In this document: positions 6,301 to 45,066 of the stretch, piece after piece
Position numbering within the stretch: position 1 is the stretch's first letter
Layout of the letters: each line of letters starts with the position of its first letter
DNA from: Nageia nagi
Lineage: Eukaryota; Plantae; Pinophyta
Assembly: GCA_050084985.1 (NCBI GenBank)
Contig: JBITNC010000002.1
Coordinates: 6,262,001-6,326,000 of the forward strand
Length of the DNA: 64,000 nucleotides
Reading direction: 5' to 3'
Made by a program: the position numbers and the translations under genes
The notes under the pieces: generated by a model
Database searches by the model: none
Told to the model about the DNA's origin: nothing
Seen by the model: only the letters and a program-made list of their open reading frames with translations

Positions 6301-7573
6301 AAAAAAAACTCACTCTTTATACATTGGTACCTATGAATTTGATGGATTGTTAGTTAAAATATGATAAAATAATTTTTTTTTCTCTTCAATGTCAATTGGT
6401 TTGTTCTATTTCCATTAATAGAACCTATAATATTTTCTACAACTCAATAAAATTAAATAGATGTATGATTATAGTTATGGACTACATGAATGAAAGTCCT
6501 CATATATGGTTTCGACCTTGTCATTTGATATGCCTTCAGCCTTATAATTTGATATGGCTCTGACTTTATCATTCGATACAGCTTTAACCTTATTTCTTGA
6601 TATTTTTCATTGCTATAACAATTTTTAAAATTAAAATTTATCTATGGTGGGGCATACCTTGTCGTTATCTTATTGTGATGGAGATTTTTAACTATAAGAG
6701 GATGAGTTTGCTTCAAAATTGATTCTCACAACTAGTTGCTCTGGTTGTAGATCAAATCACTTTTTGAAATATTATATCGCATTTAATTTATATATGATGG
6801 GATACAAGTGACAATGTTTTCAAAATAATTGATATTTTCTAATTTCATGGTTAAATGGGTCAAAATTTATATTTTTAGAAAAGCTATTTATATTGTCAAC
6901 AAGTATACAACTATAATTATTATAAACCATTAGTAAAACTACTATGTATTTAATATTATTCCTTAAAATTACGATGAGAAGATAAAATGAAAATACATAA
7001 AACTTGTTTCCAAGGGGACATCGAACTCGTGAGGTCCATGGCTAAACGTTGGGAGGTCCCATGTTCAAATCACTCAATATGTTGTAGTACTTGTCATGAT
7101 ATATTGTAGTACTTGTCATGCATGCATGATTGATTTAAATGTAAAATGGTTACGAATTTCCAAAAAAATCTATCCTCTAACATTACCCAAATAAATATAT
7201 ATATATATATATATATGTATCACTAAAATGAAAATTTGTAAAATACTAATTTTTTTAGGGAATGTTTTAATGCTTTTCACAAGCGTAAAATTAAAGACAA
7301 AATTCTAACCTGAACACATCTTTCCCACCAAAACTAGTGCTACCTATTGACCAACTGTTGGGATTCTTGCACGGCCCACAAAATTTCAATTCCTAGGAAA
7401 AAACCTGGAATGCCCAATTTTTTGGGATAATCAATCGTGGAAAAAAGTATGAACAAATGCTGGTGCTTGTGCTGCTATGGTGATGGACGACAGCGGGTCA
7501 GGAATAAAGAATTAGACCACGCATAACATAAACCATTCACATGCTCACAGGACGGTGGAAGGAGACAACTCTA

Positions 7574-7588
7574 CGCGGTCTTATCTGG
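7574..7588 (+). promoter_or_regulatory. Conserved promoter element CGCGGTCTTATCTGG, copy A
   Basis: Identical 15-mer 134-152 nt upstream of all three bHLH start codons; contains a CGCG box and GATAAG on the opposite strand. Confidence 0.7.
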
Positions 7589-7707
7589 ACCTGGTTGTTC
7601 TTAAAGCTCTCGAATCCCTATCAAAACCGTCAGTAGTCTTTACAGGGAGGCGACTATCTGGATTCTGGGCATTACAGAGGTTTTTTCCAGTTTAAAGGAA
7701 TTAAAAA

Positions 7708-8178
7708 ATGGAATCGTTCGATTATCTGAACAGTGTAGCGCTGGAGGATTTGGAGATGAGTATGATGGAAGCGAGGAGCGGCCTCTATTCCATGAATGCC
7801 CTTCAACACTATTCTTCTTCTTCCAACAATAACACGAACGTTAGTGCGCTTACCAGTTCTATTCATGTCTGTGATGGGGACGCCGTGAGCTTTACAACTA
7901 GTGTGAATTCGAGTCACCAAGAACTGCACGGACTGTGGAAAAATGGGGATTCTTCCTCCGCATTTTCGTTCGAGATCGATGGCAAAAAAGGAGGAAAGAG
8001 GAAGGGGGTTGCGACTAAGGAAGAGGATGGCTGCTTTTCTGGGGAGAGCGATCGGTGCGAGGAGGGTATGACGAAGTGCGATGCGGCTGTTAAAAACTTG
8101 GTATCTGAGAGGAATCGCCGCAGGAAACTGAATGAGAGGCTTTACGCCTTGCGCTCTGTTGTTCCTTTCATCACCAAG
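7708..8178 (+). CDS. bHLH transcription factor first exon A (N-terminus + basic region + helix 1; 157 codons); no exon 2 of its own
   Basis: Intact ORF MESFDY...KNLVSERNRRRKLNERLYALRSVVPFITK followed by AAG|GTAAGA phase-0 donor; paralogous to exons B and C. Confidence 0.85.
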
Positions 8179-10544
8179 GTAAGAAAACAAAAAACCCATT
8201 TAGTCTGCAGATTCCAACTCTTCTCTCAAGGAAAACTAATCTAATCTGCATTCATATCAATACTTAATATCTAAAACTTTGACAGGGTAGATTTCTTTCG
8301 ATTTAGATGGAGATTACAGGGATTATTAGAGTCTCATCTGAATGTGAAATTCCAACCTGATTCGTACAAATAATCTGTGGAACTGTTAAAACTCAAACGC
8401 AACAGTAACTGTCCATCTATTCGGTATAATTTGATCTTCGTATGTTACACATTGCATAGTTCCTTTGCTGTCTTCTTAAATTATAAGAAACGCTACAGAC
8501 TTTCTAAATATATTATTTAGATTTTTACTCTATTTTTTTATTATGAGTTATAAATTTGTGTGGGGAATTGACATTTGTTATATGTTACATATCTACTGCA
8601 TACTATAAGGGAGAATTGAATATGGAATCTCTCGCTATCCACTTGAAAGTTTTCAACTAACCCTTTTTCCAACTCCACTACACATGTTAGATTTTGTTCT
8701 ACTTTTTCAAAAATTTAGTAATATTACTTTTAAAAAAAAATTGACCTTTTTTTTTTATAGAAATGTGATTTTATATAGAATTGATAAATATAGTAATAGT
8801 ATTGTAATATGTAAAAACAATTAAATATGTTTTTAAATAATTTTAATTATGATATTAAAATTTATTATTTTTATCATTCATATATATATATAGATAATTT
8901 TGACAACTTATTGGTATAGTAATGAACATCATTAATGTTATTTTTAAACTTTATTTTCAATTATCTTAGAAACATTTTTTTAGGTTATTGAAGAAAACAA
9001 ACTACAATGCTAAAACTTGTACATGTGAACTTGGTAAGCCCTTGTATATGTGAATTTGTATATGTAGTAAGATTTTAAAACTTGTTTATAAAGTTTAAGA
9101 GAGTGTTAGAAAATTTTATTGAATAGAAAATGCATTGCAAATGGGATGGGGGTTGGGTTTGACTGTTGGGTCAATTTGATGAAAGACAACCACCTAGATA
9201 TGAAATCTAGTTTAAAGGAAAAAAAAAATTCTTGAAGGATGATTTCCTCTCATACATACATATATATATATACTAAGCATGATTATTATGATGATAATGA
9301 ATCTCATAAAAATTATAGTTCAAAAAGGAAAGATATTTCTTATGAAATTGGATATTGAATACATATGTATTTAGTAAGGGAAAAAATTACAATTTCATAA
9401 AGTTTTATGGTAGAATATTTAGTTTTAGTGTTTGTCTTAAGAAAAGTATTTAGTTTAAAGCCTACCTTTTAATGAGAAACATTCTAGGGTAATTTTAAGA
9501 GATGCAAGGTCATTGTATGGAACATAGGACTATTTCAAGAAACATAAGACTAGTCCAAAATTTATATAGACATTGCAATATTTGGTTTTAAAGGATGATT
9601 TTGACTTTTATACTTAATTCAATTTTCTAGAATTTTTATTTTTTAGTTCAAAATTACTTTAAATGGTAAGTAGGTTAGATCTAAGATAAATGCATTATAT
9701 AACCCTTTAATATATAATACACATTAGTAATGAAACTCAACTCAAATTTTTAGGGTTTTAACCAAGGGTGTAGATGTTTTCTAGGTATGTGAAGGTAGTC
9801 TCCTCAAGGGAGTATTCTTGATTTAGCTCAAGGCTAGAGGATACACTACATAAAATAGTTTTGATATACTCCCTTATATATCCAAAAAATGTCAAGAGAT
9901 ATCATTCCTGAGGTGCCTATTCCATTTCTTGGTATTGCGAATTATGATTTCGAATTGTGCTATGTTTGATCCACCTAATAATATTTATATAGTTTTTAAA
10001 TAATTTTTTGAAATCTATTATTCTTTTTTTTTTTTAAATAATAATGTTGATTTATTTTTTTTTTAATATTGAAGCTTGACATACATACTCACATGTGACA
10101 TTTTGGCTCTCCACTCCACCCCCGACTGCAGTTATAAGAACCTCTCTCGATGTTAATGAGTGGTTGCTTAGGGCTAAGGTTTAGCTCAAGGCTAAAGGAC
10201 TCTCTCAATATACATTAGGAAATCTATTTGTTTTTAATATCTAAGGTTAAGAAAACAAAACTTAAAACTATTTTTTTATTCACCATATTACTCAAAATAT
10301 AAAGGAAAAATATTAATTATATTTAAAATTAAGAAAAATATCCAAAATACTTCTATAATTTTATATAATATCAAAATTTATTTTTATTTAAAAAAAAATA
10401 CAATTTCAAAAACTCTTTAGATCTATTAAATCATATAAGATGCAAAGCCAAAAGTATACTCTACTAATTTTATTATGCATCCATTACTAATTTTATTATG
10501 CATCCATTATCTTCTTTAAAATTTAAATTTTCATAATATCCTAA

Positions 10545-10761
10545 ATTATTAAACTTAAATTTATTAGCTAATAAATTATTACAATGATTTGTAAAGTAAG
10601 AAAGAGAAAGTATTGTTTGACTGAGTGATTAAATGCTTTTCACGTTCATAATACCCTCAATTATTAAACTAAAATTTAGTAGCTAATAAATTATTACAAT
10701 GATTTGGAAAGTAAGAAAGAGAAAGTATTCGTTCGACTGAACGATTAAATGCTTTTCACGA
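10545..10761. repeat. ~115-bp tandem duplication upstream of exon B
   Basis: aattattaaac...tagctaataaattattacaatgattt...aaatgcttttcacg occurs twice (from ~10545 and ~10659). Confidence 0.9.
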
Positions 10762-11046
10762 GCATATCATTAAAAACAAAAAATCAATTCTATACGTATT
10801 TTCCACCCAAATTAATTAATCAAGCGACCGACGGTGCGGGCCATTGCAGAACCCACAAATGTCCTTCCCGCGGAGAAAAGAATTTGAGAATTCCGAATAC
10901 CCGTCTTCTTGGGATGATCAATCATGGAAATGCTTCCAGTGAGACTGCAGGTAATGAATAAAGTAGTAGAGCACGAGAATCACGAGCAGATCAATCATTC
11001 ACAATCCACCAACCAGAGTTCTCAATACTCATATTAGGAAAGTCTA

Positions 11047-11061
11047 CGCGGTCTTATCTGG
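11047..11061 (+). promoter_or_regulatory. Conserved promoter element CGCGGTCTTATCTGG, copy B
   Basis: Identical to copies at 7574 and 26988. Confidence 0.7.
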
Positions 11062-11198
11062 GCCAGGCTTTTTCTTATAGCAAGTCGAATCCATAGCAAT
11101 GTTCCACTTTATCAAAGCCATCGGTTCCCTCTACCGAGTGGCGATTATATCTGGGTTCTGGGTATTACAGAACTTTGCTATTTTGAGGTAAAGCAAAA

Positions 11199-11678
11199 AT
11201 GGAATCGTTTGATTATCTGAGCAGCGTATCGCTGCAGGATTTGGAGATGAGCATGATGGAAGTGAGCAGCGGCGTCTTCTCTGTCAATGCCCTTCAACAC
11301 TATTCTTCTTCTTCCAATACCATGCCTACCACTTCTATTCATATATGTGATGGGGACTCCATGAGCTTTACAACTAGTGTGAATTCGGGTTACCAAGAAC
11401 TGCACGGATTGTGGAAGAATGGGGATTCTTCCTCAGCATTTTCGTTCGAGATTGATGAAGGAAAAGGAATGGCGAAAGGAGGAATGACGAAGGGCGTTGC
11501 GAAGAAGCAAGAGGAGGACTGCTTTTCTGGGGAGAGCGATCGTGGTGAGGAGGAAATGAAGTGCTGGAATAAGAAACGCATGACGGAGGGCAAGAACGTC
11601 GTCTGCGAAAGACAGCGCCGTAGGAAACTCAATGAGAGGCTTTATGCATTGCGCTCCCTTGTTCCCTTCATCACCAAG
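11199..11678 (+). CDS. bHLH transcription factor first exon B (160 codons); no exon 2 of its own
   Basis: Intact ORF MESFDY...KNVVCERQRRRKLNERLYALRSLVPFITK followed by AAG|GTAAGA phase-0 donor. Confidence 0.85.
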
Positions 11679-12587
11679 GTAAGAGGCCAAAACCCATTTA
11701 AATAATTCGAGACTTGGGAGTGTATATAATATTGCAGTCCGTAGCTGCAGATTTTATTTCAGTTATGGCTATGGGCATCTGCATAAAACATGCCATTCTT
11801 TCAGAATAGGAAAACTAATCCAATCTGCATTCATATCAATAGTTAAATATACAAGAAACAATAAGAATGCTTATAATCTATGATATTATGAGATCTATAT
11901 AAGTCATGGATCACTTCTAGCATTCTAGGCTGAAAAAAAATTACTTGGTGTTGTCTTGAGGGTCTTTGTTAGATTCAGGGACAAACTGATCTTATTGTGT
12001 CAGTGTGATCATCCTCATATTTCCTAGTCGAACATCTTTCAGGTTAGAAGAAGGATAAGATGAATCTAAATGTGGTGGTCTTCTTTGAACTATTGCTGAG
12101 TAGGACTTTCCTAAGATTGAATATTTCTTGATGAAAGGGATAATGCATCTTTAGTCTTTATAATTGATTCATGATTTTAATGTATAAATTATCTGAATAA
12201 GTAATAATATCTACCATGTATTTAATATATTTAATAGTAAACAAAGCAAATGAAAATAAAATGTTCTTTGGATTCTATCTTAACATTGAATAATCTACAG
12301 ATATACTACTTCTAAAAAAGTATTGATTTATTTCAATATGTAATTGATGAGAGTAAACTCTTAGCTGAACTAGAAGAAATCTGAGAATAAACAAAATGAA
12401 ACACAACCCACAAGAAAGTTAACTTTTAAGGTCCTTATTCTTACATGAATATGGAAATGGTAACTAGTATTACATTTATTTTGACTACTCATCCAAGTTC
12501 CAACTGAGGATAACCAGTATTTATTTTGACTAATATTCAACTGAGGATAACCATTTCGCTTTCCAGGTAGCATTTTCTGGTGCATCT

Positions 12588-12675
12588 TGAAGATTGTAGG
12601 GTTTATCAGAGTCTCCTCTGAACTTCCAATCTGAAGATTGTAGGGTTTATCAGAGTCTACTCTGAACTTCCAATT
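12588..12675. repeat. 44-bp tandem duplication within the conserved intronic block of copy B
   Basis: tgaagattgtagggtttatcagagtct(c/a)ctctgaacttccaat x2. Confidence 0.95.
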
Positions 12676-13149
12676 TAATTCGTACATAAATAATCTCTAA
12701 AACTGTTAGAAGTAGCCATCTTTCGTACATCAAATGCAACAGTAAACTGTAAATATGATTTGATCTTAGTATGTTTACGCATAGTATAGAGTCTTAAAGC
12801 ATAAAATAGTTTTTTTTTTTTTTTTTTTCAATTAAGTTGCATAGTTTCTATTTGACGGAATAGATACGCCATTAAAAGCAGTTTTTACATTTTTTTTTTT
12901 TGCCCTTATCAAAATAAATAAAAAGAAATTTATTTTAACATTCTTAAATTCAATTATTTGGAAGATCTATCAAAATTAATAGTATATATAATATTTATGT
13001 AATTAAATTGCTCTTTCTAAAAAATAAGATTCATAATAAAATAATTGAGTTTGGGATATTTATAAAAAAAAAACTTCATAAAGTAAGAAATTATAAAAAT
13101 GGTCTTGTATCATCTTAAGTCATAACTACATTTATATTGTTTGTTGGGC

Positions 13150-13645
13150 ATTTTTCATACTTTCTTCCCACAAGAAGAATAAACCACCTTCCACTATCCA
13201 CTTCGCATCCATGGTTGTACTTTGTAATGAGGGTTGTCTAAAAGAGGTTGCTTTGCAAAATATTCATGATATCATAGACTCCTATGTGTATGTCTCACTT
13301 ACAGTATGTGAAGAAAGCCTTGCCCATGATCCATACTCCCATTCTCAATGGCAATTAGTCGAATACATAATGTTCCTATGTTGCAATTTCCTAAATAAAT
13401 ATTCAACTTCCTTAACAAACATATTCTATACATATTCTGCAATCATTTTGTTGGTGTAAGGCTTTCTTCTAAATGTAGCACTATAATAGATAGACATATG
13501 TGGAGAAGTCTATTATGTCATGCACATTCTACAACTCATGCACAACCTCATTGAGATGATCCTTTGTACATAGTGCAACCATGGGGTGTGGAATGGGCAG
13601 AGTAGAGGTTGTTTATTCTTTGTATGGGAAAAAAGTGTGAGAGAC
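13150..13645. mobile_element. Fold-back / MITE-like element with ~150-bp imperfect terminal inverted repeats
   Basis: 13150-13300 (ttcccac...agaataaac...ccatggttg...gaggttg...catga...atagact) is the reverse complement of ~13490-13645. Confidence 0.7.
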
Positions 13646-15899
13646 ATCCATGAGACAATCTGAATGCAATCATGACTTAAGGTGAGAGAGGGTCATTTTT
13701 GTAATTTCTCAATTTGTGAGGGTTATTTTTGTAAATGTATCTTGTTTTAATTATATTTATTTAATATTTATAATAATATAATGTTAGATTTTAATTTTAT
13801 TTTTTAAAATATTTAATCAAATTATTCTAGTGATATTATTTTTATGTTCATCCATGTTAGAGGAGTTGGAAAGTAATGGAAACACTCTATGGGATGTCAA
13901 GGTTAAATCTTCCCACCCTAAGTGGTTAAACAAATAAAACCTTATAGAAAAATGAATTATGATCAAGGTCAATCTTGAGTAACTTTGATGGAATAAATAC
14001 CTCTAATTATGATATATCAATCAAAAGCAATCCCTATAAAGGAGTTATGTTTTATCCCACACACACATATATCGATAAATAGATGAACATATAATATTAC
14101 ATAGAATCAATATAAATTAATAATTGTATAGTAATGTAAAAATAATAAAATATATTTATTGATAATTGGTAAAACTTAGACATTTAATTATGATGAAAAC
14201 TTTAAACTTTATTAATTTTATACATTAAAATATGATATGTTTTAAAGTTAAAATTTAAAATATGTCATAATTCTTATTCATTAATATAAATGTTGTATGA
14301 TTTTAAAACTTTCTTAGAATATTGTATTCATGATATTAGTATCAAGAAAGGTATATGTTTTCTTAGTACAACTCATGCTCACAACCTTTAATTGGACGAG
14401 ATTCATAAATAATATTAGATACAAGGCATACCATGTAAACAAGCAAAACATATGTTAAATTTTGTGAATAAATATTATGCTAATGAGCTATTCTTCAATT
14501 ATATTTAAAGGAATAAAAATTTAATGCTTTAATTATAACAAGATTATTTTATTAGTCTTATGAGAGCCTATTTCACCCTTGTCCCTTATAGGTATAATTA
14601 TTGATCTAAGGCTGCTAAGTTTTCTTAATGGAATATGGCAACATCAACAAAGAATGATAAAAAATAAAATATATAAGAAGCAAAGAAAAATGAAAAAATT
14701 TAAAAAGGGAAAGGACATATGATTATTCAAAAGAATAATAGTAGATTACATTTAATTAAGTGAATAATATAGAATAAAAAAATGCGATACTAGAGCAAAG
14801 TATTGAAGTCTTTAAGAAAAGTGTAAGAACAAAGTGAAATATAATATAAGCAATCTCTAAGAAAATATGTGTGGGTTATGTTATTCCATCTCCCATTCAA
14901 GCTATACTCTTAAAGATATTTGTGGATCCAAATTTATACAACAATATCATGGTGAAAATTAGATAATTTTGATATGGACATTAAACTATTTCAGATGATT
15001 CAGCTTATGTAAAATATCCAAATATGATTATGTATCTTAATAGTGTATTATTAGTCACACAAGCCCACCTTCCTATTCCACTCTATGAGAAAAGATCAAA
15101 CTACAACAAAGGGATTAAACCTAAATTAGACCTAGTTGAAATTACTTGTTCAAATTTATGCACTAAGCATGAACTTCCACACATAATAATTATTCTTTAT
15201 GACCTTACTTAACATTTCATTTATTATGTTCAATTACAAATTTTTGAAACATAATTCTACAATTTTTCCTAATTTGACTTACCAAGGTTCAAAGTGAACC
15301 ACTTGCTCTATCAACAAGAAAAGGATAATACACCTAAATTCTAAGAGGATAATTTATTATCTCAAATCTATGGGAGGGTAAATAATTTGTATTAATTAAT
15401 CAATACCTACTATTCATTTCTTAAATAAAAGCATATTCTACAACATCATTTGAAAGCAATAAAATATATAAGAAACTACCTAATATTAAATTTAGTCTAG
15501 AGGTATATAATAACATTTATAAATATTTCATCCTTCCATACATTTAATAAATACCAAAACAATATTACTATAATAATGCCTACAACATTAAATTACTCTC
15601 TTGAATCTTAAACTTTTTATTAAAATCCTAGACAACTATTGATGTTCTTATTTGTATGCTTTACTTGTAATAACTTTTCTCCTTCTAAAACCTATGATGT
15701 GCAACCTCTCTTTGTACTAAATGATCTCCTCTTAGATATACTTTTGATTAGCTCCCTAAATGAGTGGAAATAACATTTATTTATAGGCTTCCTTGATGGG
15801 TACATTGATGTCATTCCCATTAATGGTGGTACTAAGGCAAGCATTCATAATAATGGTGGTAATTGAGATAGATTTGGCTCCATTCTTTGTAAATATTTT

Positions 15900-18800
15900 C
15901 CAATACATCTTTTAAAATATATAAAACTTATGTCTTCCAAAAGTGGCTGGTGTAGGTTCCTTTGGTTATATATTATCACATGTTTTATAAGAGCTAAATT
16001 GTATAGGTTCTATAATGTGTGGGTGCAAGTTTTACCTTCTAATCACTATTAGAAATTCTAAATATATATATATATATATATATATATAGATTATTTCCCT
16101 TTCAAAAATCATGGGTGTGAGCTCTCCATGTTCGTTATCATTGGTTTTACAAATCACAAAAATTTAGTCTTCCAAAATATGTAGGTTTGATATGAAGGAC
16201 TTGCTCAATTCTTTCACTATGATATATTTTATTAAGTATTAAAATTAGTTTTTTTTTTCCAAAACCATTAGGTATGAATTGATCTACTTACATTTATTTA
16301 TTAAAGGTTTTGCATTTTACAAATGACATTTTTCATATTCTACAAATTATACAATGTGTGTCTTCCAAAATTCACAGGTGTGATAAGGATTATGCATTTT
16401 AAATTTGTGTGAAATAAAACTTGTCCTTAACAATTTCTACTACACCATGGGTGTCATGCAATGCTCCTACATCAAACTCTTGGGGTACAAAAATATGCGA
16501 GCTTCTACTCATAGGTTCTCATTTCAAATGAGAAGCTTATTTAAATGAGAAAACTCAAGCTTCTAAATCCATGAATCTTCTTCAAGTCCTTATCCCTTCC
16601 AAAAGATAATGTATTCTTTGAACACTTTACCTTTTATTTTCTTAACTAATCTTTCTTGTGATGTCTTCTTAATTTTTTCTCTCTTTTTATTTTGTAGTTG
16701 ATCTATCTAATCTTTTACTCCTAGGCTTTCTCCTTTTGGTCATCCTTTATCTCTATGATATTCATTTTTACATATGGATGAAAGTTTAAAATATTAAATA
16801 TAGGAGATATATTTAATCCATGAGGTAATTCAACCTCAAGCAATATTTACTTTATTTTTACATAGTTTTATCTTCTTATACTTCAACTTGTTACAAGTCC
16901 CTTTTATAACCTCTCATTTTGCAATAATACCATCACTAAATCACCCACTAAGAATGACTACATACCCTTCTCTTGTCATCAATCCTCCCTTTGTACTTCA
17001 TATTTCTCTCCTAGATTTATTTTTTGTGATTACATTGTGGAACTGCTTCATATGCTCTATAAAGTCTTCAATAAATACATTCTTTATATCAACTACCACT
17101 TTCATTAAATCTATAAATCCTCTTGGTGATCTTCCATACATAATATGAAAAGGTGAAATAATTATCAACATATTCACTAAGTTGTTATAGGTAAACTCTT
17201 CTTGGTATAATATTATGCATCCCATTACTTTTGTTTATCTCCCCCTAGATATTTAAATAAGTTTTCTATAATCCTATTTATCACTTCACTTTATCCATAT
17301 ATTTGAGTATGATAGATTGAACTAAATTCCAATCTCATGCCCAATTTCTACCATAATATTTTCCTAAAATATCTTATAAACTTAGTGTATCTATTGGAAG
17401 TTATTCTTCTTGATAATCCATGCTATCTTACTACCTCTTGGAATAATAGTTTACAATATTTGAAGCATCACTAGTTATTTTGTATGGTATAAAGTCTTTT
17501 ATCTTCAAGAATTGATCCAACACTATGAAGATGCTATCATGGCCACTATGTGTTCTTAGCAATCCCAATATAAAATCCATGTTAATTTCTTCCCAAAGTC
17601 TACTAGAAATTGGTAAATTTTTATACAATCCCATATTTTTACTAGTCCCTTTTACTAACTAACATGCTCTACATCTAGCAACAAATTTCACTACATATTT
17701 TAGTAACCTATGATAAAAGCATTTCTTCATCCTTTTATAATTCCTTCATGTCATCTAAACCTACTACAACTTTTCTACCTAATGTATCAAATTTACCTTA
17801 TTTTGGCTATTTATGTTTCTCAAATCTTAGCAATGAGTTTAAAATACAAATTCCTTAGATAATTAATGCTTCAACTTCTTGAATGCCTATATGATGGCAT
17901 ATAACTTCTATTCATATTTTAAATATCTTTATTTTGACTCATTTAATTTTTGGTTAAAGAATGCTATTAGTTTCCCTTTTTGGCTTAATGTCATAGCCCT
18001 AATCTCTTTTCCTTTAGCATCATAATTAACTTGGAACACCTTATTGAAATTGATTCCCTTAATATTGACTTCTCCATTATCCTCTATTTTAATAATTTGA
18101 AATTCTCTTCTACCTCTAGGGTTCATATAAATATTTGCTTTTTCATGTAGGAAGTGAACACTCCATAAATCCCACTAAAGTTTGAAATAAACTTTCTATA
18201 GAAACTAGCCAATCCATAGAATATTTGAATTATATGATATTCCTTAGTATAGGCCACTCCTTGATCATATCTACCTTAGCTATGTTTTCATCTTCAATCC
18301 ATCTCTTGAGATCATAAATCCTAACAATATTGATTCTTTTTTAAGAAAGAGCACTTTTTAAGGTTGATCATAAATCTTTCTTACCTTAATCTTAATAATA
18401 CTTGCCTTAGTTGTTACAAGTGTTATTATTTACATTTAATATTTATAAGGATGTCATCTACAGATACTAAGATAAACTTTCCTGATAATGGTTCCATGAT
18501 ATCATTCACTAATATTCTCATAAAAGTACTTAAGGTTCTCATCAACCTAAAAGACATAACTAACCACTCATACAATCCAACTTTTTTTCTTAAAATCATT
18601 CTTACATTTATCCCCTTTTCAAATCCTAATGTGATGATACTCACTCTTTAAATCTAGCTTTTAAAAATATCTTGCTCCACATAAATAATATCATAGGTCA
18701 TCCATACAAGGTATGGGAAACTTATTTCTTGGGATCTAACACTAGTGGTACTACACATGGACTAAGGTTATCATTAATTATTCTTATTTATATCAATTCA

Positions 18801-20700
18801 ATTCAATTGTAATCTTCATGTCCACTCTATGGGGTATCTTCTTTAACAAACTAACTCCAAATATTAAGTCTATCTGGTGGGAGATCTTTTTCATTGATGG
18901 AGATCTTATTAGTAATTCTTGGGTAACTATATCAACATAATCATCAATTATATATTCCACTTCATTAGGTATTTTCTCTTCCTTTATCTTTTCCTATATG
19001 GAAATATAGAATAATAAATTTCATTTTCTTTAAAATCATTCAAGAATTTCTTACTTTATAACAAACTTATTTCGCTCTAATTGCTCTCTTCAGTTTTAAG
19101 TTTTAATGGTGTGAATTCAAAATTTTAACTATTCTTCCAAATGGAGAGTATATTCTTCTTTCAATGATGTATTACATTTATAACATACTACCATAGTCTT
19201 CCAAAGAACATGACAAGCATCCATGCATATAACATCACTCCAAAAATTATCAATATACACTCCAAGTACAAGATTTTTCCTATACCTTTAGGAAACCATA
19301 ACTTGATGTCCCTTATCTAAGCATGAGACTTTATGTGGTTATGGATGGGTATTATAAGTCTTCAAATTTATCTTATTAACCATCTATGTTAATATCATGT
19401 TCTTAGTATTTCCATTGTCCATAATCGCAATACAAACCTTTCCTTCACTTATGCACCTTATCCTAAAGATGCTTCTTCTATACCATTGCTCTTCTACTTT
19501 TCTATTTGGAGTGATCAAATTTCTCCTTACCATGAATTTTTCTCTAGCTTCAGTTGCAATAGGACCTTTATTATCTTCTTCTTCTTATTCTTTAGTGTAT
19601 TGGGCCATATTTATTGTATTATCATTATATATACCATCTCTCATTGGTTCCTTACATTCAAATGGCCTATGGTCTTGAGCTCCATACTTGTAACACTCAC
19701 TGAACTTATTAGATTTTTGGTCCCTTCATTTAGATTGATGTCCTTTTCCTCTATATGATTGATTTAATTTATTTCCCTCTTAGGGTTACTTGAACCATAA
19801 TCTTCTTCTTTCTTCTATGATTTATCATATTTTTCAAAATATAATCCTTTATCTTTTCTAATATTGGAATTCTAAATGGCTTTTCTTGCAAACTTATCCT
19901 CAATATTTAGTGTATAATAGTATGTCTCCTGTATTGAACATATGTTCAATATTCCTATATCACCCTAAATGTTCAATCTTAATTCATTTATGTACCTTTA
20001 AATTTTTTCCTCGATCTCTTTGGTAAGCCCTACTCTAATGATCAATTGATAAAATTCCTTGGTATAATCCTTTACACTCATCTATCTTTATTAGAGATTT
20101 TGTATCAATCTAAGTAAGCTCAATTCATACTTTTATAAAATAAATTTCTTCTTTAACTTTGTTAACATTCAATTCTAAGACTTGATGTTGGTTTTACCTT
20201 CCTTCACTCTTTTCTTTTAAGTTTATTCCCACCATAATGACACATTTTCTTTTAATGTTTTGAAAACAAACATAACCATTTTAGCATCTTTGATATTTTC
20301 AATATTAAAATATTTCTTTAATTTGAAGATATAGTCAATCAACTCTTTTGGGTTTAAGCTTCCATAATAGTTAGGAAAATGTATCTTTGGTTTACTTCAA
20401 TTCTTCACTATTACCTTAGCATGTCTCATTTCAAGAGAATATTCCTCTTCTTCTAAACCAGTATCTTCTTCATATTAATTGGATTCACTTTCTTCCAACT
20501 CAACATATCTTCTTCCTCTACGGTGGCCTCTTTCAGTAACTCAATGATTTACTTCTTCTACACCTACCAATAATTGTTTCATCTATCATAGTTCTTCCTC
20601 CATTGTTTCTTCCCTTGTATTGCATCTATTTGATCTTCATCCTCCTTTTTGGAATTCTCTAAGTTATTCACCAAATGATCTTGGTCACTACTACATTCTT
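15900..20700 (-). mobile_element. Decayed Ty3/gypsy retrotransposon, CRM-like chromovirus (gag-PR-RT-RNaseH-IN)
   Basis: Minus-strand relics: RT GLYEWLVMSFRL..TLSTFMR..VSVDDILI (18426-18644); RNase H FQVNYDAKG...LIAFFNQKLNESK (17929-18040); integrase GLYKNLPISSRLWEEINMDFILGLLRTHSGHDSIF (17431-17634); gag ~19900-20600; possible 3' LTR starting TGATG at 16474. Confidence 0.85.
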
Positions 20701-21249
20701 CTTCCCTAGATATGATAGGTATAAATTGCTACTATTATAGTTATGAATTATTATTTCTATAGTTATGAATCATGAATACAATGGTGATGAGCTATTAAAA
20801 TCTTATTATTGCTAAATTATTTCATTCAATACTCCAAAAAGATGAAGATATCTATCAAAATACTAAAAGGAAATTCAAATTTATGGTGGGAACAAGTCCA
20901 AAAGGAAAATTTTAAGGTAAAGCAAAGATTAAAATCTTGGAAAAAAAATGTTGAATAAGTTAAAGTAGAAGTTTGTTCCTACAAATTATAAATTTAATGT
21001 ACTTAGAAAACTCTGAAAATTTTGACAAAGGGAGATGAATATGAAAGACTATATGAAGGAATTTTATTAATTAACCATTATAATTAGACATACTAAGGAG
21101 AGCAAGGAAAATATTTTTAGATATTTCAAAGGATTGAGATTGTCCATTTCTACTATCCAAGTTGATAAGTCATGATAGATGAATTTCTCAAATAAGAATC
21201 ATAAGAGATTTGTTAGCAACTCCTTTCAAATATTTTTTAGGCTTGGCAA

Positions 21250-22870
21250 CTTTGATGAGGTTAGAGGAGGTATGCTCCTTGATTGGTCAAAATGAATTTT
21301 TTATCTTGGAATATTAGAGGCTTAATGGATCCAATCCGAAGATACATAGTCAAAGATGAAGATTTTTTTTATCTTAACCAATATGATTCTCCATGTTTGA
21401 TTTATCTCCAAGAAATTAAAATTGTTGACTTCAATTTGTAATATGCATGTTCATTTATTTTTCCATGTAGATAAATTTATACTACTAAGCATCCTCATGG
21501 TTGAGGGGGAAGCTATCATTCTCATTTTTTTCCAAACAAAAATTGAGTTTTGTTACTTGGGTGATAGGCCCTTCACATCAAGTAGTTTGGATATTGCTAG
21601 AAGTTAAGGGAATTTATTTCAATATTGTCAATATTTATGCATCTAATGATGCCCATGAAAGGACGTACATGGCCTTTGGAGATGGTGTACCCTTTCATTA
21701 CTACCTATGGTGATATAGGTGATGTGTAGGGATTTCAATATTATAGAAAAAGGCTTCAAATAAAATGGTTCATATCACATGTAAATGATCTATTAAGGTA
21801 AGAGAAGCTTGCATTTTATGAAAAATAAATTAAGACTATTATATCCTAATTCATGCTTTACAGCATATCAATTTCCTAAACACCTTTAGTATATGTGGTC
21901 CAATTATCAAGAAGATCATGCAAGAATTCTTAAATAAATGGATAGAACTATGTTGTTTAATCATAGAAAATTTAACTTTCATCAAACAATACCTTATGTA
22001 CCTATTGTAAAACCCATATTTAGCATGGTGTCTTTTGACCATGCTCTTATTATGTTCATAATGACTAGCACTTATTTTCCTTAGAGGCATTATAAATCTA
22101 TTTTTTTAATACTTATTTTCTTTAGTACCCCTCTATGATGATTTGTATTCAAATATTATAGAATCTAATCCCTAGGCCTATTAGCAATAAGGGATAGATT
22201 GAATGGTGTAATAACAATATAATTTGCATAATTATTTTTCTCTACATTATGGGTAAGAAGGTGGCTCAATTATGAAGGAATTCCATCTTGGTTTTTTTAT
22301 GGATAAGTTGTCCAAAGAAATTATATGAATTAAGGTTAGTCCTCTCATTCCTTCTCTTTAAGCTTATGTTGCTCATATCTTCCATAAACTTTAATTTATT
22401 GAGCTATATGAAGCCAAAGGAGCATAAATAAAATCCCAACTTTACTAGTTGAAGATTGGGGATACAATCATTAAGAAATTCTTCCAAAGGCTTTGACTCA
22501 CCTCCCCTCAATCTACTCAATTTAAATCCATTAAAGAAAAAAGGGTTAGACTTACTTTCATACCTAAGATTTCTAAAGCTTTGACTTTATATTATACAAG
22601 TTTTTTTTACCAAAGCTTTTACTACTAAGAGGGAATAAGTGCTTCTTAATGATAGGGATGTGACAAAATTCTCTTTATTTAGTATATAATTGATGGTCTC
22701 TCCTAGATGATGAATAAAAAAAAACAAGGTCTAGATGTTTGTCCTTATGAATTTTACAAAGCATACTAAGATTTTCTTGGCTCTAATCTTCATAAGGTAT
22801 ATCTTGAAGCCTTAAAAATTGGTTCTTTGGTACCAATTATCAACAAAGGTAATATCAAGTTTACTAAGGA
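21250..22870 (+). mobile_element. L1-type LINE ORF2 remnant (endonuclease and start of RT)
   Basis: SWNIRGLN (~21304), IVNIYASNDAHER (~21625), GDFN-like (~21730), G.D..PYEFYK (~22730), INKGNIKF (~22840); many frameshifts. Confidence 0.8.
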
Positions 22871-24739
22871 GAGACTTGAGGCATGGGGATGATTGACTAT
22901 CAAAGATAAGGTATAACCCTCCATGATAAATGTATAGTGCAAGTGGTGAAAGGCACAAAAACATGGAAAATTCTAATTATCACTTCATCTCTTATATACT
23001 TCCTCTCAATAAGTGAGTAAGGAAAGGGATAGACTTTCCTTCAATGGTTCTTACATCAATGTTTGTCAAAATCCCTAGTTCTTTTTTAATTAGAATCACT
23101 TGATGAGCTTAACAATAGATTATATTATGGATTAGATGGAAGGGAGTAAATTCCCATAAAGAATTTTTTATTAATTCCCTCAATATTTGGTGGTATTATA
23201 TAATTAATTTATTGTGTGCTCCTATAGCTTAAATGAAATGGGTTCATGCCAAGAAGTTCCTTAAATGAGGTATTATCCTAATTTAATATTTCATGCCCAA
23301 GCAAACTCAGGATTAGATTCCATGAAATAGCTTCAAATGCATGTTCAACCTAAATAATACAAACAAATTAACTTATGATATCATTATTGAGCTTACTTCT
23401 TTCTCTCTATTGTACAAAATTGGAGTGAGAATTCAAAATCCTTAGTGGAAGGATTGGTATTTTAATGTGGACATTCCACTTCTTAATTATTCATCCTAAC
23501 TTGGATATTCATGGATTTTTCCTATTTTTCATATGATTCCTTGACTCAATAAGTGTGATTTAATTTCCACTAAGTCTAGATGGAAATTAATGTTCCTCTC
23601 TATATGGACTCCTTATAATTAATGTTGAATACACTCACTTGGATACTTATGAACCAAATTCTTCCTATTGGTGACCACCTAAAATACTTAAGTGTTCCTA
23701 ACCTAAGGTATACTTTATGCAATGATTATGAGTCCTATATTCATATATTTTGGTCTTATATGTTGCTTATTTTTTTCCCCTTTTATGCTTGGTAATTTTT
23801 CTTGGCAACATGCTTTATTAGGCAACTCTTTCATCCATATCATGTCACTTCATGAAGTTCGATAGATTTTAATAAATAGTTTTCTCTTTCATATTTAAAA
23901 AGTTCATAATTGGACTATTTTCATATATTAACCTTCTATAGGATCCATTATTTTTGATAAAATAAAAGTGTTTAATTATATGTGTTTATAAATATGTACT
24001 CAAGCAGATAAAGTTGTAATGGATTTAGATCATATATACTTTGTTTGATTGTTAGGAGAATGCTTCTTGTTATATTAATTAAGTCATTATAGATAATTCT
24101 TTATAGGATCAAGCATGCAGGTCTCCATCACATTGGTATCCTCTATTGTATGTTTGATCCTAACCTACCAACTAACATTAGTCACAACCCTTGCTAGTGT
24201 AGAAGCAACTCCATGATGTAAACACTAGCTACTCATGAAAACAACATGGTGGGTGGATGCATCGCTTGAAATTTCTTAGCACATTATGGGGTACGATAAT
24301 AAGAGAATTAATGATATGATACTCCAAATCATATTGATGGTATATGGACTTCACACACCTTTGGTATTCACCACCTACACATGGCTAGGAAGATTTGGGT
24401 ATGGTAGTAAATGATGGCATACACAAAGGTGATGGATGGGACATTCAACCACTTATTTCTAATTAATGGTAGTACTTGATGAAAAATGAAGCACCTTTAA
24501 TAGATGCCTCCCATAAGGTTTGATGATCTCTCTTTTAATATTTTAACATGATGGGTTATTTGTTAAGATGATCATCTCAAGTCATTTTGTACATATTTTT
24601 TTAAATTTATCCTAACCTCAAGTTAGGGTTAGTGTGAACTCACTTTAGGGTGTGACTTATTCTACCTGATCTTCTTTTATTGTAAAGGAACTTAAATTTA
24701 TTAATTAAACTTTCTTTTTATCAAAAAACTATTTATCAT

Positions 24740-25570
24740 CAAAGATATATATAAATAATCAACCAGATTGATAGATGTATTGAGTATACACCATGTAGGT
24801 AGAAGGAATGAGTCTAAAATACACGAAGAATTCTTACAAGGAATATTTTTAGATCTCTTTGATATTTGGGAAGCATTCTAGGACCATAGAGTATGGAAAT
24901 GTTTCTTCATTCAGGAAGGATTCTATTTTAGTAATAAAAAATTATGGATTCCACAAGGTTCCATGAGGGAGAACCTTATTAGATAACTTCATGGGGGAGG
25001 TCTTGAAGGACACTTTAGAAGTTACAATACGTTGCTATAATTAAATAAAAGGTATTATTATCTAGGATTATGAATAGATATAAAGTATACAAAACTTATC
25101 CATTGGTAAAAGGAACTAGTAGGAATATAGGGTTATACAAACCATTACTATATCTTAATGGACCTTAAGATGATATTAGTGTAGATTTTATGTTGGGATT
25201 TCTTAGAATACATAAGAGAAATAATAACATCTTCACAAAATGGTACACTTTATACCTTTAAAAGGACTATCAATTCTTCACGCAATGCTTAGATATTCTT
25301 TCCAAGAAGTAGGGAAGAAATTATATGGATTACTAAGATTAAAATTAGAAATAGGGACACCAAGTTCTAATCCATTTCTATAAGAGGTTATGGAAAATAT
25401 TAAGCATGAGATATTTGGATTTGAGTTTAACAAATCATCCATAAATATATGGATAAACCAAAGTAATCAATAAGAGTTTGGGCAATCTATTGACCAAAAT
25501 AGTTGGACACCAAATTACTTGGCTAAGTTGAATTTGCTTGCAATAACTCTATAAATAGGAAAATAAAAGT
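24740..25570 (+). mobile_element. Ty3/gypsy (CRM-like) integrase fragment
   Basis: WIPQGSMRENL...LHGGGLEGHF, GLYKPL...DDISVDFMLGF, DTKF, GNLL relics with stops. Confidence 0.75.
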
Positions 25571-26987
25571 TATCAATATATTATTTGGAATCAGATACTT
25601 ACATCTATATCATGATAATACATTATTAGTAATTAGTATAGGGGTCGCTTGTGTAAGTATGTGCAAAAGATCCCCAAAACCCTAATTGATGCAGATGATG
25701 TATGTAAGGAAATCATTAGTAGTATTTCCCAAGTCTTTGTTGGGTTTGCTGGTGTTTATTTGTTTTTAGTCTTGATGATGGTTTTGACTATGCGAGCTAT
25801 GCATGCATACTAGATACATCTATTATAGGTCATCTTGACAATGGTCATGATTTGAATCATGCAAACCCTAATGCTTTCGAAAATAATCTTTTACACCCTA
25901 ATTTGGATGATAAAAGGAGATTTATCGCCCACTCAACACAACAAGATGGAAAGTGGTGTTGAAGCAACATTGGAGGTGTTGGGTAGTAAATGCATTATCT
26001 TTTACAATATATTTGGATTAGTCACATCAAGGTCATCTCCTTGAAGCTTTGGATGTTTGTGCAAAATGAAACTAGATGTACCAATTTCTTGTTATTTTTC
26101 TTCAAAGCTTTACAAATCATAATTCCCCTTAGGACAACGCTTGGAGCCCAAATTCTAATTACTTAAAGGATACTTCTTTCACTCAACATATAGACGTGTT
26201 AGAGCAACACGAGAGGTAAATGGGAGTGCTAAGCTCGTATATGGATCATATTTAAGGCTTGAGTGTTGGTGTTGAATGTCCCTCACTTCATACATTACTT
26301 TACGAGTAAGTGTATTTAGTCAATGACAATAGGTCCATCATCTTATTTAAAGACTCTTGGAATATGATTTATTTATTCTAAATAAAATAAATTAAATTAA
26401 AAACTCAAGACAAAATTGTGATTCGCCATATCACTCAAGGTGTAAGTGAAGACCATACTTTATATTTAAATTATATTTTGAAATTTACTTTTTTTAAGAA
26501 AAAGAAAACTATGATTCTAAAGACTCTCAAAAAAACTAAGAAAGATTTTTTATCTACCAAATCATTTAATATACTAATAAAAAATAAATTATATTAACAT
26601 CCACTTAAAACTATACACCACTAAGTTTTATTATTCATTAATTATCTCTTTTAAAATATATCATTTTCCTAATATATTAAATTAATTATCTAAATTTAAT
26701 TAGTTAAAAAAAAAATTCAAGTATAAATTTGAAAACAACATTTTGAACTCCACACATACTTTCCACCCAAAGTAGTGCTATGTTGGAAAATATTGGAATA
26801 TCCAACTTCTTGGGCTGATCAATCATGGAGAAAAATATGACTAAATGATGGTGCTCTGGCTTTCATGGTGATGGTGTGACAGCAGGTAAAAAATAAAGAA
26901 TCACGAGCCCACACATCACATAAATTAATCATTCACAACTACCCAATCAACGTCCACAGTACTGATATTAATAGGGCAACAACTCTC

Positions 26988-27002
26988 CGCGGTCTTATCT
27001 GG
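26988..27002 (+). promoter_or_regulatory. Conserved promoter element CGCGGTCTTATCTGG, copy C
   Basis: Identical to copies at 7574 and 11047. Confidence 0.7.
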
Positions 27003-27137
27003 GCCTGGTTTTCTTACACCAGTCAAATCCATAGATCCATGTTCTACTTTATCAAAACAGCAAATTCCCTTTTATAGAGTGGCCATTATCTCGATTGTGG
27101 GCATTACAGAGCTTCTTAAGTTTAAAAGAATCAACAA

Positions 27138-27581: not shown

Positions 27582-29933
27582 GTAAGAAAACAGAAACCCA
27601 TTTAGTCTGCAGATTCCAACTCTGATCTTATCTGCATAAAGCATGCCATTCATAATGAATAGAAAAATAACGTGTGTTCTTATCAATACGTAATAATTAA
27701 TACACTAAAGAAGAAGTCTTCATTTTCAATTTTTTTACAGGGTAGATTTCCTTCAATTTATGGTGAGATTATAGGGTTTATCAGAGTCTTCTCGGAATTG
27801 AAATTCCAACCCTATTCGTGCACACATCATTTGTGGAACAGTAGAACTGTTAAAAGTAAACATATTTCATAGATTATTATGATGGCCTGTCATCAGATGC
27901 AATTGTTAAACTGTCCATCTATTCAATATGATTTGATCTTGGCATTGACGTATGTTACTTTGGTGTCTTGTCTTGAATTATCAGAACAGGCTTTATGAGC
28001 ATTAGATTAGACATAAATTCTACTTTTTCTAAAGTTTAACCAAGTTTCTTTAGTAGGATTATTGTGAGGAATAAAGTTTTGAATTTTGATAAAGATGAAA
28101 TGACAAATAGAATTGACAAAGATATTAATAATGCGGTAAGGTAAAAATAATCAAATGATTATCTAAGTTTTTAAAGCTAAGAATTAGATATTTATTTATA
28201 AGGATAATATTAAAATTAATTATTTTTTACAATTGAAATTTGATATATTTTAGCATTAAAATTTAAAATATGAAATAATTTTTATTTCATGATATAAATG
28301 TAGTAAGATTTTAAAATTTACTTACAAATTTGGTATGGTGAAATGTATAAAGTTTTACTTTACAACTTCATTTTTATTAAATTTGGAGCTTGATTTTTTT
28401 CTCTTTAAATTTAGATGTTTTATTTTAGTTGCATTTAAAACTTTTAGTATTGTATATCGAACCTCTGCCTATGTGGTTTTGCTCATTGATGAGTAGGTTA
28501 GGAGGGTTTTGAGGGGTGGGAAGCCCCCATCGATAATGGGGTTTGGGGGCAACATCCCTAAAGCCAAAATACACATGGTTTTCTCTAATTATTTTCCATC
28601 ATTATTAGTGTAATTCAATGGATTTAAAGGATATTTTTCATTATTGCAAGTGCATATAATTTATTTGATATATCATTTTATTAGGGATATGATTTACATA
28701 TGAAATGAGACATTATAACATATAAGACTAGCATATTCATATGTTTCTAAAAGATGTTACTAAAGCACAATTCTTAAAGCTTACAGATAGGCCTATTAGT
28801 CCTCTCAACATGAAGAGGGAGACTCTTAAAATGGTGATGTTGATGCACGAGGGAAAAAAAATCAGGTCATATCTTATTAGGTGCTAATTGTAAGTACCAT
28901 CTATAATTATTTGATAGCCTATGAGTCATATATTTTTCGTAATATGATAGATAGAACATCTAACCAAATGAAAGACCATCATTCCCAACCATAGGAGCCA
29001 TGCACCATCATCACTAATGCACAAGACACTCATCTGTAGAACATAGGGCTAGCCTCCACTCCACCCTTGATCAAATGAAACCACTAGAGGTATGTGCCAT
29101 CTAGCCTTGCATTCAAGACTGTACAACATGGTCCCTTGGTGAGACTATGGTGATTCATCCAACCCAAGCTAGCTAGCTTGTTCAAGGCATGCAGCGAGGA
29201 ACCATGCTCGCATGCCAGCGCATGTGCATGTGTCCCTTGTCTCAATCGTGAGAGAAGGAGCATTCTTAGCCTTTATGATATGAAAATATCATGGTACTTT
29301 AGCTTTGTAATTTGTCTCTCCATTTTTTAAATCATCATGATGGATATTCATAAAGATAAAATATTGCATCACCTAGCCACATACATATTATCTATTAATA
29401 TATGATCATTTTGTATTCTCTACATGCATAAGGGAGATTTTTGAATATGGGTCTCTCAAATTTGAGAGTTTTCAACATTTGTTGCTTCGAACTCCCCTAA
29501 TATGAGTAGAATAATTTAACTAGCTTTATGTGGAGATTGATTTTTATAATAATTTATATCATGTTATTATGTTTTTGCATTGATATTTTATTTAGTATTT
29601 TGACGTTTCATTAACTTTTAACATACAACTCTTGATATATGTATCAAATATTCTTATTTTAAAAATACATCATACAATTTATTTTTGAAATAAAGTTTGA
29701 TTAATAATAAAAGTTAATAATATTAAAATCACTATTTCAATTTCAATTGATATAGTTTAATAAGAATTCCATTTTTAATACTATTTCTTGGGGAAGCTTA
29801 AAAGAAAAATATAGATTGAAAGATGAAAAAAACTCAAACAACTAGCTTCCCAAAAATAAAAATAAAAATTAAACCTTAAGAAAAACACTAACTTTATTAT
29901 AAATAACCGTAAGTTGTAATGTGGGTTTAACAG

Positions 29934-30185
29934 ATGGACAAGGCATCCATCATTGGAGATGCCATCAAATATATCCAAGACTTGCATAATCAGGCCAGAG
30001 ATATCAAGGCCGAGATTACAGCCCTGGAGTCCAACAACGACTGCTCTTCTTCAACAATAACAGCTGATGTGGATGACAACTATCATCAGTCTCAAGATAT
30101 CAAGTCTCACATGCCCAAACTCGAGCCCTCTATGACTTCAACATCAGAAAGAGAAGGATTTGGCCATGCCAATGTGGCTCTTCAA
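29934..30185 (+). CDS. bHLH exon 2 (helix 2 MDKASIIGDAIKYIQDLH + linker)
   Basis: ttaacAG|ATGGAC acceptor and CAA|GTAAGT donor, both phase 0; completes ...PFITK|MDKASIIGDAI, typical of FIT/bHLH27/bHLH35 (IIIa). Confidence 0.93.
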
Positions 30186-30265: not shown

Positions 30266-30439
30266 GTCGACATTTCACAGATAGAACAGAGAACATTTCA
30301 CATTAGAATGTTTTGTAAAAAGGAGCCCCGTGTACTAGTCCTTTTGACAAAGGCCATGGAGTGCATTCAACATCTGGAAATTCACAATTCTAGTCTGACC
30401 TGCTTTGACAGCATCATCATCAATACTATTATTGCAAAG
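30266..30439 (+). CDS. bHLH exon 3 (ACT-like domain VDISQIEQRTFHIRMFCKKEPRVLVLLTKAME...)
   Basis: 80-nt GT-AG intron before it; ccAG|GTC acceptor, AAG|GTATGT donor, 58 codons; matches the C-terminal ACT-like domain pattern of group III bHLHs. Confidence 0.9.
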
Positions 30440-30520: not shown

Positions 30521-30598
30521 ACAGAAATGGAGGTCGAATCTCTCAGAAATGCCATTATGGGGAGTGCTTCCAAGTACGGTTTCCATGCACCATCATAA
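30521..30598 (+). CDS. bHLH terminal exon 4 (TEMEVESLRNAIMGSASKYGFHAPS*)
   Basis: 81-nt GT-AG intron, in-frame acceptor, TAA stop; AATAAA at 30667-30672. The C-form protein is 315 aa. Confidence 0.85.
   Translation, partial: TEMEVESLRNAIMGSASKYGFHAPS

Positions 30599-44680: not shown

Positions 44681-45066
<386 letters not shown>

Follow-up and report, generated by a model that had tools for sequence, protein, structure and literature searches.

Tandem first exons of a bHLH35-like gene in Nageia nagi and evidence for splicing of two of them to one set of downstream exons

We analysed a 64,000-nucleotide stretch of the genome of the conifer Nageia nagi (GenBank assembly GCA_050084985.1, contig JBITNC010000002.1, positions 6,262,001 to 6,326,000 of the forward strand), here called the window, which appears, from the names of the best database hits, to hold a gene for a bHLH35-like transcription factor. 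Three tandem cassettes, A, B and C, each comprising a promoter region, a coding exon 1 and the start of intron 1, lie upstream of a single set of exons 2–4 (Table 1). On balance we believe that A and B give rise to two full-length proteins and that transcripts of C mostly end in intron 1. A preliminary description, made from the letters alone, had called A and B 'orphan' exons and by implication took C for the ordinary exon 1. Public sequence contigs overturn both points: they run B (in three of four runs) and A (in one) into the start of exon 2, and C is seen only unspliced, with a ratio of non-synonymous to synonymous substitution (dN/dS) that is inseparable from 1.

Results

Contig evidence for splicing of A and B to exon 2

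Five public contig runs were candidates for analysis, none of them on record as RNA and none containing half of the query words; four of these, X1–X4, were examined. Exons 2, 3 and 4 are joined with GT..AG boundaries in all four, with 172-letter sides, and cover between the exons is near-absent, so the runs behave as transcriptomes. Their contigs show presence, not absence, and gaps in cover (A in X2 and X3, C in X4) were not read as silence.

A joint from the B donor at 11678 to position 29934, with GT..AG boundaries, skips 18,255 nt that include C, and is found in X1, X2 and X3, which come from three studies and two organism codes. For A, a contig of X1 covers 7797–8178 (382 nt, one difference), stops at the donor and continues for 18 nt that are the start of exon 2, a string with a single occurrence in the window. 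In X1 the overhang into exon 2 measures 18 nt at A as well as at B; at B in X2 and X3, where there is no A contig, it measures 21 nt. We assume from the index description that the underlying graph has k=31; the shorter overhangs would then arise because the final 12 nt of A and B are identical and the two paths join before exon 2. At least two first exons are thus spliced to the constant exons, with overhangs that are short and unphased, and the splicing of A and B to exon 2, which the preliminary description had proposed, finds direct support in the contigs.

Contig depth is consistent with this arrangement. The summed depth of A and B compares with that of exons 2–4 as 20.7 to 19.7 in X1, 17.7 to 20.4 in X2 and 7.3 to 8.2 in X3, and by copy it is 9 for A and 11.7 for B in X1. 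In this last run the listed pieces explain all of the exon 2 depth (9.41 against 9.4), which argues against the presence in X1 of another exon 2 with 90% or more likeness.

Several related sequences were seen in the same runs. A paralog that shares window positions 29932–29965 seems, judging by a 41-nt piece of X1, to have the last 9 nt of exon 1 as well, and one X2 contig carries a related exon-1 end followed by a different intron of its own. In X4, which represents another organism (organism C), a 1109-nt contig of depth 87.7 contains a 102-nt B-like piece (11564–11665, nine differences) amid unrelated sequence; a change of Glu-13 to Asp is among the four differences listed, and the piece may be the decayed remains of part of an exon 1 inside a different transcript of that organism. 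The A-like copy of organism C has 40 extra intron letters at 8228–8229, resembling a segment that is kept in B and C and missing from A of the window, which makes it likely that cassette A is older than the split from organism C.

Three first exons and one set of downstream exons

A, B and C are tandem homologous coding first exons in a common frame, and all end in a phase-0 GTAAG donor. The start sequence is aaATGGAATCGTT in all three, in keeping with the preliminary description; its statement that the donor is preserved applies to GTAAG, and less well to the full site, which is AAG/GTAAGA in A and B and AAA/GTAAGA in C (a slash marks the exon–intron boundary). The duplicated unit extends beyond the exon, taking in the promoter, about 450–700 nt of upstream DNA, and the start of intron 1. 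Within the upstream part, a 15-mer common to all three cassettes lies 134–152 nt 5' of the ATG (7574–7588, 11047–11061 and 26988–27002), and includes a CGCG core and a GATA-like half. Because it is inside the B contig of X2, the 15-mer may be in the 5' untranslated region (UTR). The A, B and C contigs show neither upstream joints nor loose ends where they begin, and contigs cannot place the start.

The window is free of N letters, and searches of its 64 kb with blastn, nhmmer and tblastn, the last with four full-length homologues, gave no further copy of exons 2–4. Proteins encoded by A, B and C are 74–78% identical, with synonymous divergence (dS) of 0.22–0.41, and the three group together in an exon-1 tree of seven rows (94/98, not starred). 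All three are present in run X1 at about 99% identity, and their presence together in one run argues against an assembly duplication of haplotypes. There is a hint of mosaicism, in that C resembles B in the 5' part of the exon and A in the 3' part and the intron (max-chi p 0.0004–0.003), a result that relies on poorly aligned intron blocks. A candidate internal acceptor common to the introns (near 8288, 12569 and 27740) had no joint in any run examined. We also considered a 175-aa antisense frame over A (7672–8199) and judged it to be a shadow of the coding strand.

Copy C is transcribed and read through

Transcription of C was seen in three of the four runs, X1, X2 and X3. None of the four lists a joint from C to exon 2, in contigs that can drop rare junctions. 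In X1 and X2 the C contigs pass the donor without a break, and in X3 they have a gap over it; their ends in X1–X3 are at 27794, 27768 and 27784 respectively. Read-through meets a stop after seven codons (27603–27605), and the predicted product is a 155-aa protein that lacks helix 2. No read-through contig was found at B in any run examined.

The C donor matches the donor consensus at six of nine positions and has A at −1; the donors of A and B match at seven. Plausibly, this weaker donor is the cause of the read-through, which would carry transcripts to an intronic 3' end near 27770–27795. The donor of exon 2 itself also has A at −1 and is functional. We regard C as probably unspliced for the most part, with weak constraint on it or none.

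Selection on the three exons

The preliminary description had attributed the state of A and B to purifying selection and expected pairwise dN/dS values clearly below 1. Over all aligned codons, with kappa set from 1 to 3, dN/dS was 0.34–0.46 for A and B, 0.43–0.57 for B and C, and 0.51–0.69 for A and C; the interval of the last pair reaches 1 at kappa 2–3. A three-branch codon model gave an overall dN/dS of 0.33–0.45 (p <=0.0004). On the separate branches dN/dS was 0.19–0.24 for B (p <=0.0008 against 1), 0.38–0.50 for A (p 0.02–0.07) and 0.56–0.80 for C (p 0.34–0.70, not distinguishable from 1). Divergence of the exons (0.14–0.17) is about half that of the upstream DNA (0.28–0.34), the flank against which this comparison was run. 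These values argue for strong purifying selection on B; for A they suggest, weakly, a moderate constraint, and A looks neutral when set against organism C's copy. The attribution to selection thus stands for B and is weak for A.

Differences between the window and X1–X3 comprise three synonymous and five non-synonymous changes in B, and at least two and at least three respectively in C, too few to test; between A of X1 and A of the window there is a single, conservative change (K123R). Of the marks of a pseudo-exon, namely disabling changes or a dN/dS near 1, B has neither, A is marginal, and C is intact with a dN/dS that merges into 1.

Reading frames and CpG content

As had been noted from the letters, all three exons are open from the ATG to the donor, without a stop or frameshift. 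Gaps in the pairwise exon alignments are multiples of three in five of five, five of five and three of three cases, representing about four to five events that are not independent; in the flanks this is true of 8 of 52 gaps (Fisher p 0.0003–0.001, a rough figure). In neutral simulations at the branch dS, the probability that no stop arises and that ATG and GT are kept was 0.03–0.12 for A, 0.015–0.075 for B and 0.11–0.17 for C.

The exons are also CpG-rich, again as described, with observed/expected (o/e) values of 1.01 for A, 0.87 for B and 0.95 for C; the value is 0.25–0.51 for exons 2–4, 0.22 for the whole window, 0.07 at 15.3–25.5 kb and 0.07–0.10 across DNA derived from transposable elements (TEs). 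The accompanying description of TE relics as CpG-poor and full of stops fits the relic at 17500–18069, with 12 stops in 190 codons, and does not fit the open frame of a Copia element at 3–2209. An excess of CpG decay among the copies was not clear: TG or CA stands in another copy at 14 of 35 CpG columns, and at 11 of 38 GpC control columns. An unmethylated state of the cassettes may be inferred from their CpG content, and would apply equally to C; since CpG richness extends to C, we take it to mark transcription, not protein function.

Protein family and domains

The gene is assigned to the bHLH35-like factors by the names of its best hits, the closest named proteins being Araucaria cunninghamii A0A0D6R8W4, Cryptomeria japonica XP_057862311.1 (named bHLH35), Taxus chinensis KAH9323685.1 and Ginkgo Gb_26391. 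Gymnosperm bHLH35-like proteins are collinear with the predicted protein over its whole length, and identity to the Araucaria protein is 53% over exon 1A and 63–67% over exons 2–3. Exon 3, scanned alone, matches PF22754 with E 5.1e-05 and 23.9 bits, below the curated cut-off of 27.6, and is collinear with the homologues. An Atlas search returned just generic plant bHLH clusters. In a word-based protein search, two of 13 candidates for part of A were monocot proteins, one of them named bHLH35; C gave none of 391 candidates among longer proteins, and B none of 32 near its own length.

Exon 1 encodes positions 7–28 of the PF00010 profile and exon 2 positions 37–53, and the boundary between the variable and constant exons splits the bHLH domain. 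Glu-13, Arg-16 and Arg-17 are present in all three copies. Basic position 9 is N, N and K, and position 15 is N, Q and K, in A, B and C respectively, and B has C12 in the basic region; the numbering is our own alignment to the bHLH binding rule. The four gymnosperm homologues have K at position 15 and N at 9, and so differ from A in N15, from B in Q15 and C12, and from C in K9; this comparison was of protein sequences. Helix 1 reads KLNERLYALRS in A and B and KLNESLYTLRS in C, exactly as had been quoted. The W..RMT linker of the Araucaria protein is retained in B, which also has the best tblastn score with three of four outgroups and ties with A for the fourth. In the basic region and helix 1, A departs least from the Araucaria protein (three changes, against four and five in the other two copies).

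Table 1. Features of the gene and its three first-exon cassettes (all on the + strand of the window).
Feature	Positions	Strand	Remarks
Upstream region of cassette A (duplicated promoter/5' UTR)	7260–7707	+	blastn homology to B and C upstream regions, shared-word search; low-depth X1 contig 7412–7591
Exon 1A, 157 codons	7708–8178	+	471 nt; N-terminal region, basic region and helix 1; donor AAG/GTAAGA; X1 contig to donor
Duplicated intron 1 start, cassette A	8179–8830	+	blocks 72–94% identical to C and B introns
Upstream region of cassette B	10486–11198	+	homology to other cassettes; X2 contig starts at 10999
Exon 1B, 160 codons	11199–11678	+	480 nt; best-conserved copy; donor AAG/GTAAGA; exon 2 joint in X1, X2, X3; branch dN/dS ~0.2
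Duplicated intron 1 start, cassette B	11679–14292	+	separate blocks 11777–11846, 12591–12730, 14131–14292; sequence homology
Upstream region of cassette C	26620–27137	+	homology to other cassettes
Exon 1C, 148 codons	27138–27581	+	444 nt; donor AAA/GTAAGA; basic position 9 is Lys; helix 1 has R23S and A26T
Read-through tail of C transcripts	27582–27794	+	contig ends; stop 27603–27605
Shared exon 2, 84 codons	29934–30185	+	loop/helix 2, MDKASIIGDAIKYI; single copy in window
Shared exon 3	30266–30439	+	candidate ACT-like domain; PF22754 match below the cut-off; spliced in 4/4 runs
Shared exon 4, coding part with stop	30521–30598	+	homology, splice joints

Surrounding DNA

Pieces of a Copia-type retrotransposon gag-pol lie at 3–2209 on the minus strand; one frame stays open over 407 codons (Pfam integrase core), and the CpG o/e is 0.10. 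Within the intron of B, 15300–25500 is very CpG-poor degenerate DNA, in which the relic at 17500–18069 (minus strand) resembles Ty3/gypsy pol, with no TE family match in Pfam; an inverted match joins 17272–17658 and 25103–25475. An inverted repeat at 13065–13730, like a miniature inverted-repeat transposable element, has 125-nt arms that are 74% complementary, and contains short contig pieces of X1, X2 and X3. A retrotransposon gag fragment (PF03732) occupies 31296–31616, about 700 nt past the stop of the gene. Further downstream are a long (GA)n microsatellite at about 44600–45100, the source of ER-repeat reading frames, a small CpG-rich patch at about 59100–59200, and, at 62435–62824 on the minus strand, a leucine-rich-repeat fragment that is open over 130 codons and resembles a portion of a receptor kinase gene.

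Discussion

The reading that we favour, and think probable, is of one gene with three cassettes, each of which would fire from its own duplicated promoter and start site. Transcripts started at A and B would splice to exon 2, the start of the junction being seen and its full phasing presumed, and the predicted proteins, of 324 aa for A and 327 aa for B, would differ in their N-termini and basic helices. No acceptor of A or B is used in the contigs, so the downstream copies would be removed with the intron, of 18.3 kb for B (as a joint) and 21.8 kb for A (as a loose end). Exon 1 by itself lacks helix 2 and the ACT-like domain, which come from the shared exons, and selection on exon 1 would therefore depend on the splice. 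B looks like the main exon 1, because it is the most often spliced and most constrained copy, has the best outgroup scores and keeps the W..RMT linker; A is likely a second, less constrained isoform. We favour the exon 2 of the window as the partner of both because it is the sole exon 2 in cis, because its depth tracks that of A and B together, and because its depth in X1 is fully explained.

A number of observations weigh against this reading. The short side of the A and B junctions is 18–23 letters, below the 31-letter bar for a bridging record, and a paralog elsewhere has the first 32 nt of exon 2, as a short piece of depth 45.4 in X1 and 257.5 in X4. The overhangs lie inside this shared piece, and none of the contigs leads from A or B across the whole of exon 2, so that the phasing of A and B to exon 2 rests on parsimony and the balance of depths. 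Contig depth is in turn a poor measure of expression, and the accounting for exon 2 is open in X2 (11.2 against 16.1) and X3 (3.1 against 6.4), where pieces are unlisted. The contigs are unstranded, are RNA by guess, and can drop a junction of C. A is spliced in a single run, and the A-like contig of X4 is unspliced, continuing 300 nt into the intron. That contig, 96% identical to A, differs from it by five synonymous and 14 non-synonymous changes, one of them in the otherwise invariant motif HQELHGLW; the ratio of 0.76–0.90 fits neutrality, in a comparison that is unpolarised, so that changes may be on either side. Finally, the differences in branch dN/dS among A, B and C are not significant (p 0.17–0.29).

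Some of these points would be met by supposing that B is the sole exon 1 that matters, with A spliced yet drifting, its low dN/dS a legacy of the past, and C decaying. We consider this unlikely, if well short of negligible. It accords with B being spliced in most runs, with a dN/dS of about 0.2 and the ancestral features best kept, with the neutral look and unspliced state of organism C's A-like copy, with the marginal branch test for A, and with the lack of an A contig in X2 or X3. However, A has kept its frame, start and donor through a dS of about 0.17–0.2, for which the neutral chance is 0.03–0.06, and through an in-frame 15-nt insertion. It is spliced in X1 at a depth near that of B with only the conservative K123R change, and has stayed closest to the Araucaria protein in the basic region and helix 1; the neutral-looking changes could, moreover, be on organism C's side. 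If instead every one of the copies works as a first exon, C would be spliced elsewhere, in different tissues or under different conditions, or else contig simplification beside the paralog-shared piece would have removed its junction. C is intact, CpG-rich, transcribed in three of the four runs and retains GTAAG, exon 2 works with the same A at −1, and a C junction may be missed by contigs that show presence and not absence. A dropped junction would also fit X4, in which the first exon feeding exons 2–4 is not seen in contigs, and the A-like read-through contig (depth 21.2, against 22.3 for exons 2–4) has no upstream junction. Against this, the C contigs pass unbroken through their donor in two runs and B shows no such read-through, the 41-nt piece of X1 that spans the exon-1/exon-2 boundary has no break at the point where a junction from C would join it, A and B already equal the depth of exons 2–4 in X1, and the dN/dS of C is inseparable from 1; we regard function of all three as improbable.

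We think it very unlikely indeed that A and B are parts of other complete genes, with a paralogous exon 2 outside the window or missing from the assembly, and that the three-cassette picture is an artefact. The overhangs do fall inside sequence shared with a paralog, and B of the window differs from B of X2 at 10 of 680 letters, with 0 of 710 differing in exons 2–4. Yet the window has no N letters and no trace of another exon 2–4, exons 2–4 would need an unseen first exon with an A/B-like end, and their depth tracks A and B together in three runs. The paralog-shared piece is at high depth in X2 in the absence of any A contig, and the related exon-1 end in that run has its own different intron, as expected of a separate paralog.

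In the large genomes of conifers, partial tandem duplications are mostly taken for debris or divided into separate gene models. On the reading with A and B as spliced first exons, the copies seen spliced are those farthest from exon 2, over introns of 18–22 kb, and the nearest is doubtful, the opposite of what annotation would assume. The locus would show that duplicated first exons can persist to about 25% protein divergence, basic DNA-binding residues included, and its copies would be caught at different stages of retention and loss, offering a small testable case of the fate of duplicates at the level of the exon.

Comparison with known systems

The closest likeness is to PEP1, the FLC orthologue of Arabis alpina, in which a partial tandem duplication of part of the promoter, exon 1 and part of intron 1 gives two exon-1 copies that are both spliced to one exon 2 from separate start sites, the upstream copy being less conserved (PMC3527215); NcFLC of Noccaea caerulescens is described as similar (PMC7686048). 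Both PEP1 and the gene studied here are plant transcription factor genes with the same parts duplicated and a single exon 2. In PEP1 of accession Paj the predicted proteins are identical (PMC3527215), whereas here there are three copies over 20 kb, with proteins 74–78% identical, dS of 0.22–0.41, and A predating the split from organism C. The start sites and expression of PEP1 were measured, whereas those of the present locus are proposed from sequence and contigs, and the cutting of a bHLH domain by the variable/constant boundary is a feature of this locus and not of PEP1.

Diverged variable first exons are also found in the vertebrate UGT1A, GCNT2 (three variable exons) and protocadherin clusters (PMC1885805), and 39 substitutions by N-terminal tandem exon duplication are reported in human (PMC8373072). 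These clusters share with the present locus tandem homologous in-frame coding first exons, a conserved upstream motif at a similar distance, and constant exons; here, by contrast, the gene is from a plant, lineage-restricted and encodes a transcription factor, and one copy of three is not seen spliced; the genes are not homologous, and it is their layout that is alike. Drosophila hydra has nine tandem exon-1 copies of which only some have been shown to be start sites (PMC1904467), and resembles the present case in recurrent duplication of exon 1, but is a young gene without known relatives, whereas this one belongs to a conserved plant family. About 5% of the expressed genes of Arabidopsis have alternative first exons (PMC2174465); the available part of that survey has no word starting with 'duplicat' or 'homolog'. 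The available parts of PMC3338513, PMC2682935, PMC5306129 and PMC10487979 hold no closer case, and titles and abstract openings, covering few subscription papers and no supplements, gave no conifer or bHLH case of duplicated first exons.

A bolder view, which we hold to be doubtful, would liken this locus in a plant transcription factor gene to the variable-exon clusters of vertebrates. The first exons would then form a long-standing series, kept by selection, of interchangeable front ends for DNA binding that share a single dimerisation/ACT back end; the choice of promoter would alter DNA specificity (N9 or K9; N, Q or K at 15), relatives would use different cassettes, and read-through at the nearest cassette would throttle or switch output. 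The architecture itself is of a known kind with plant precedent. What sets this locus apart is that its cassettes number three, are older and have diverged in protein, and that they divide a bHLH domain; splicing is seen for the two distal copies and is doubtful for the proximal one.

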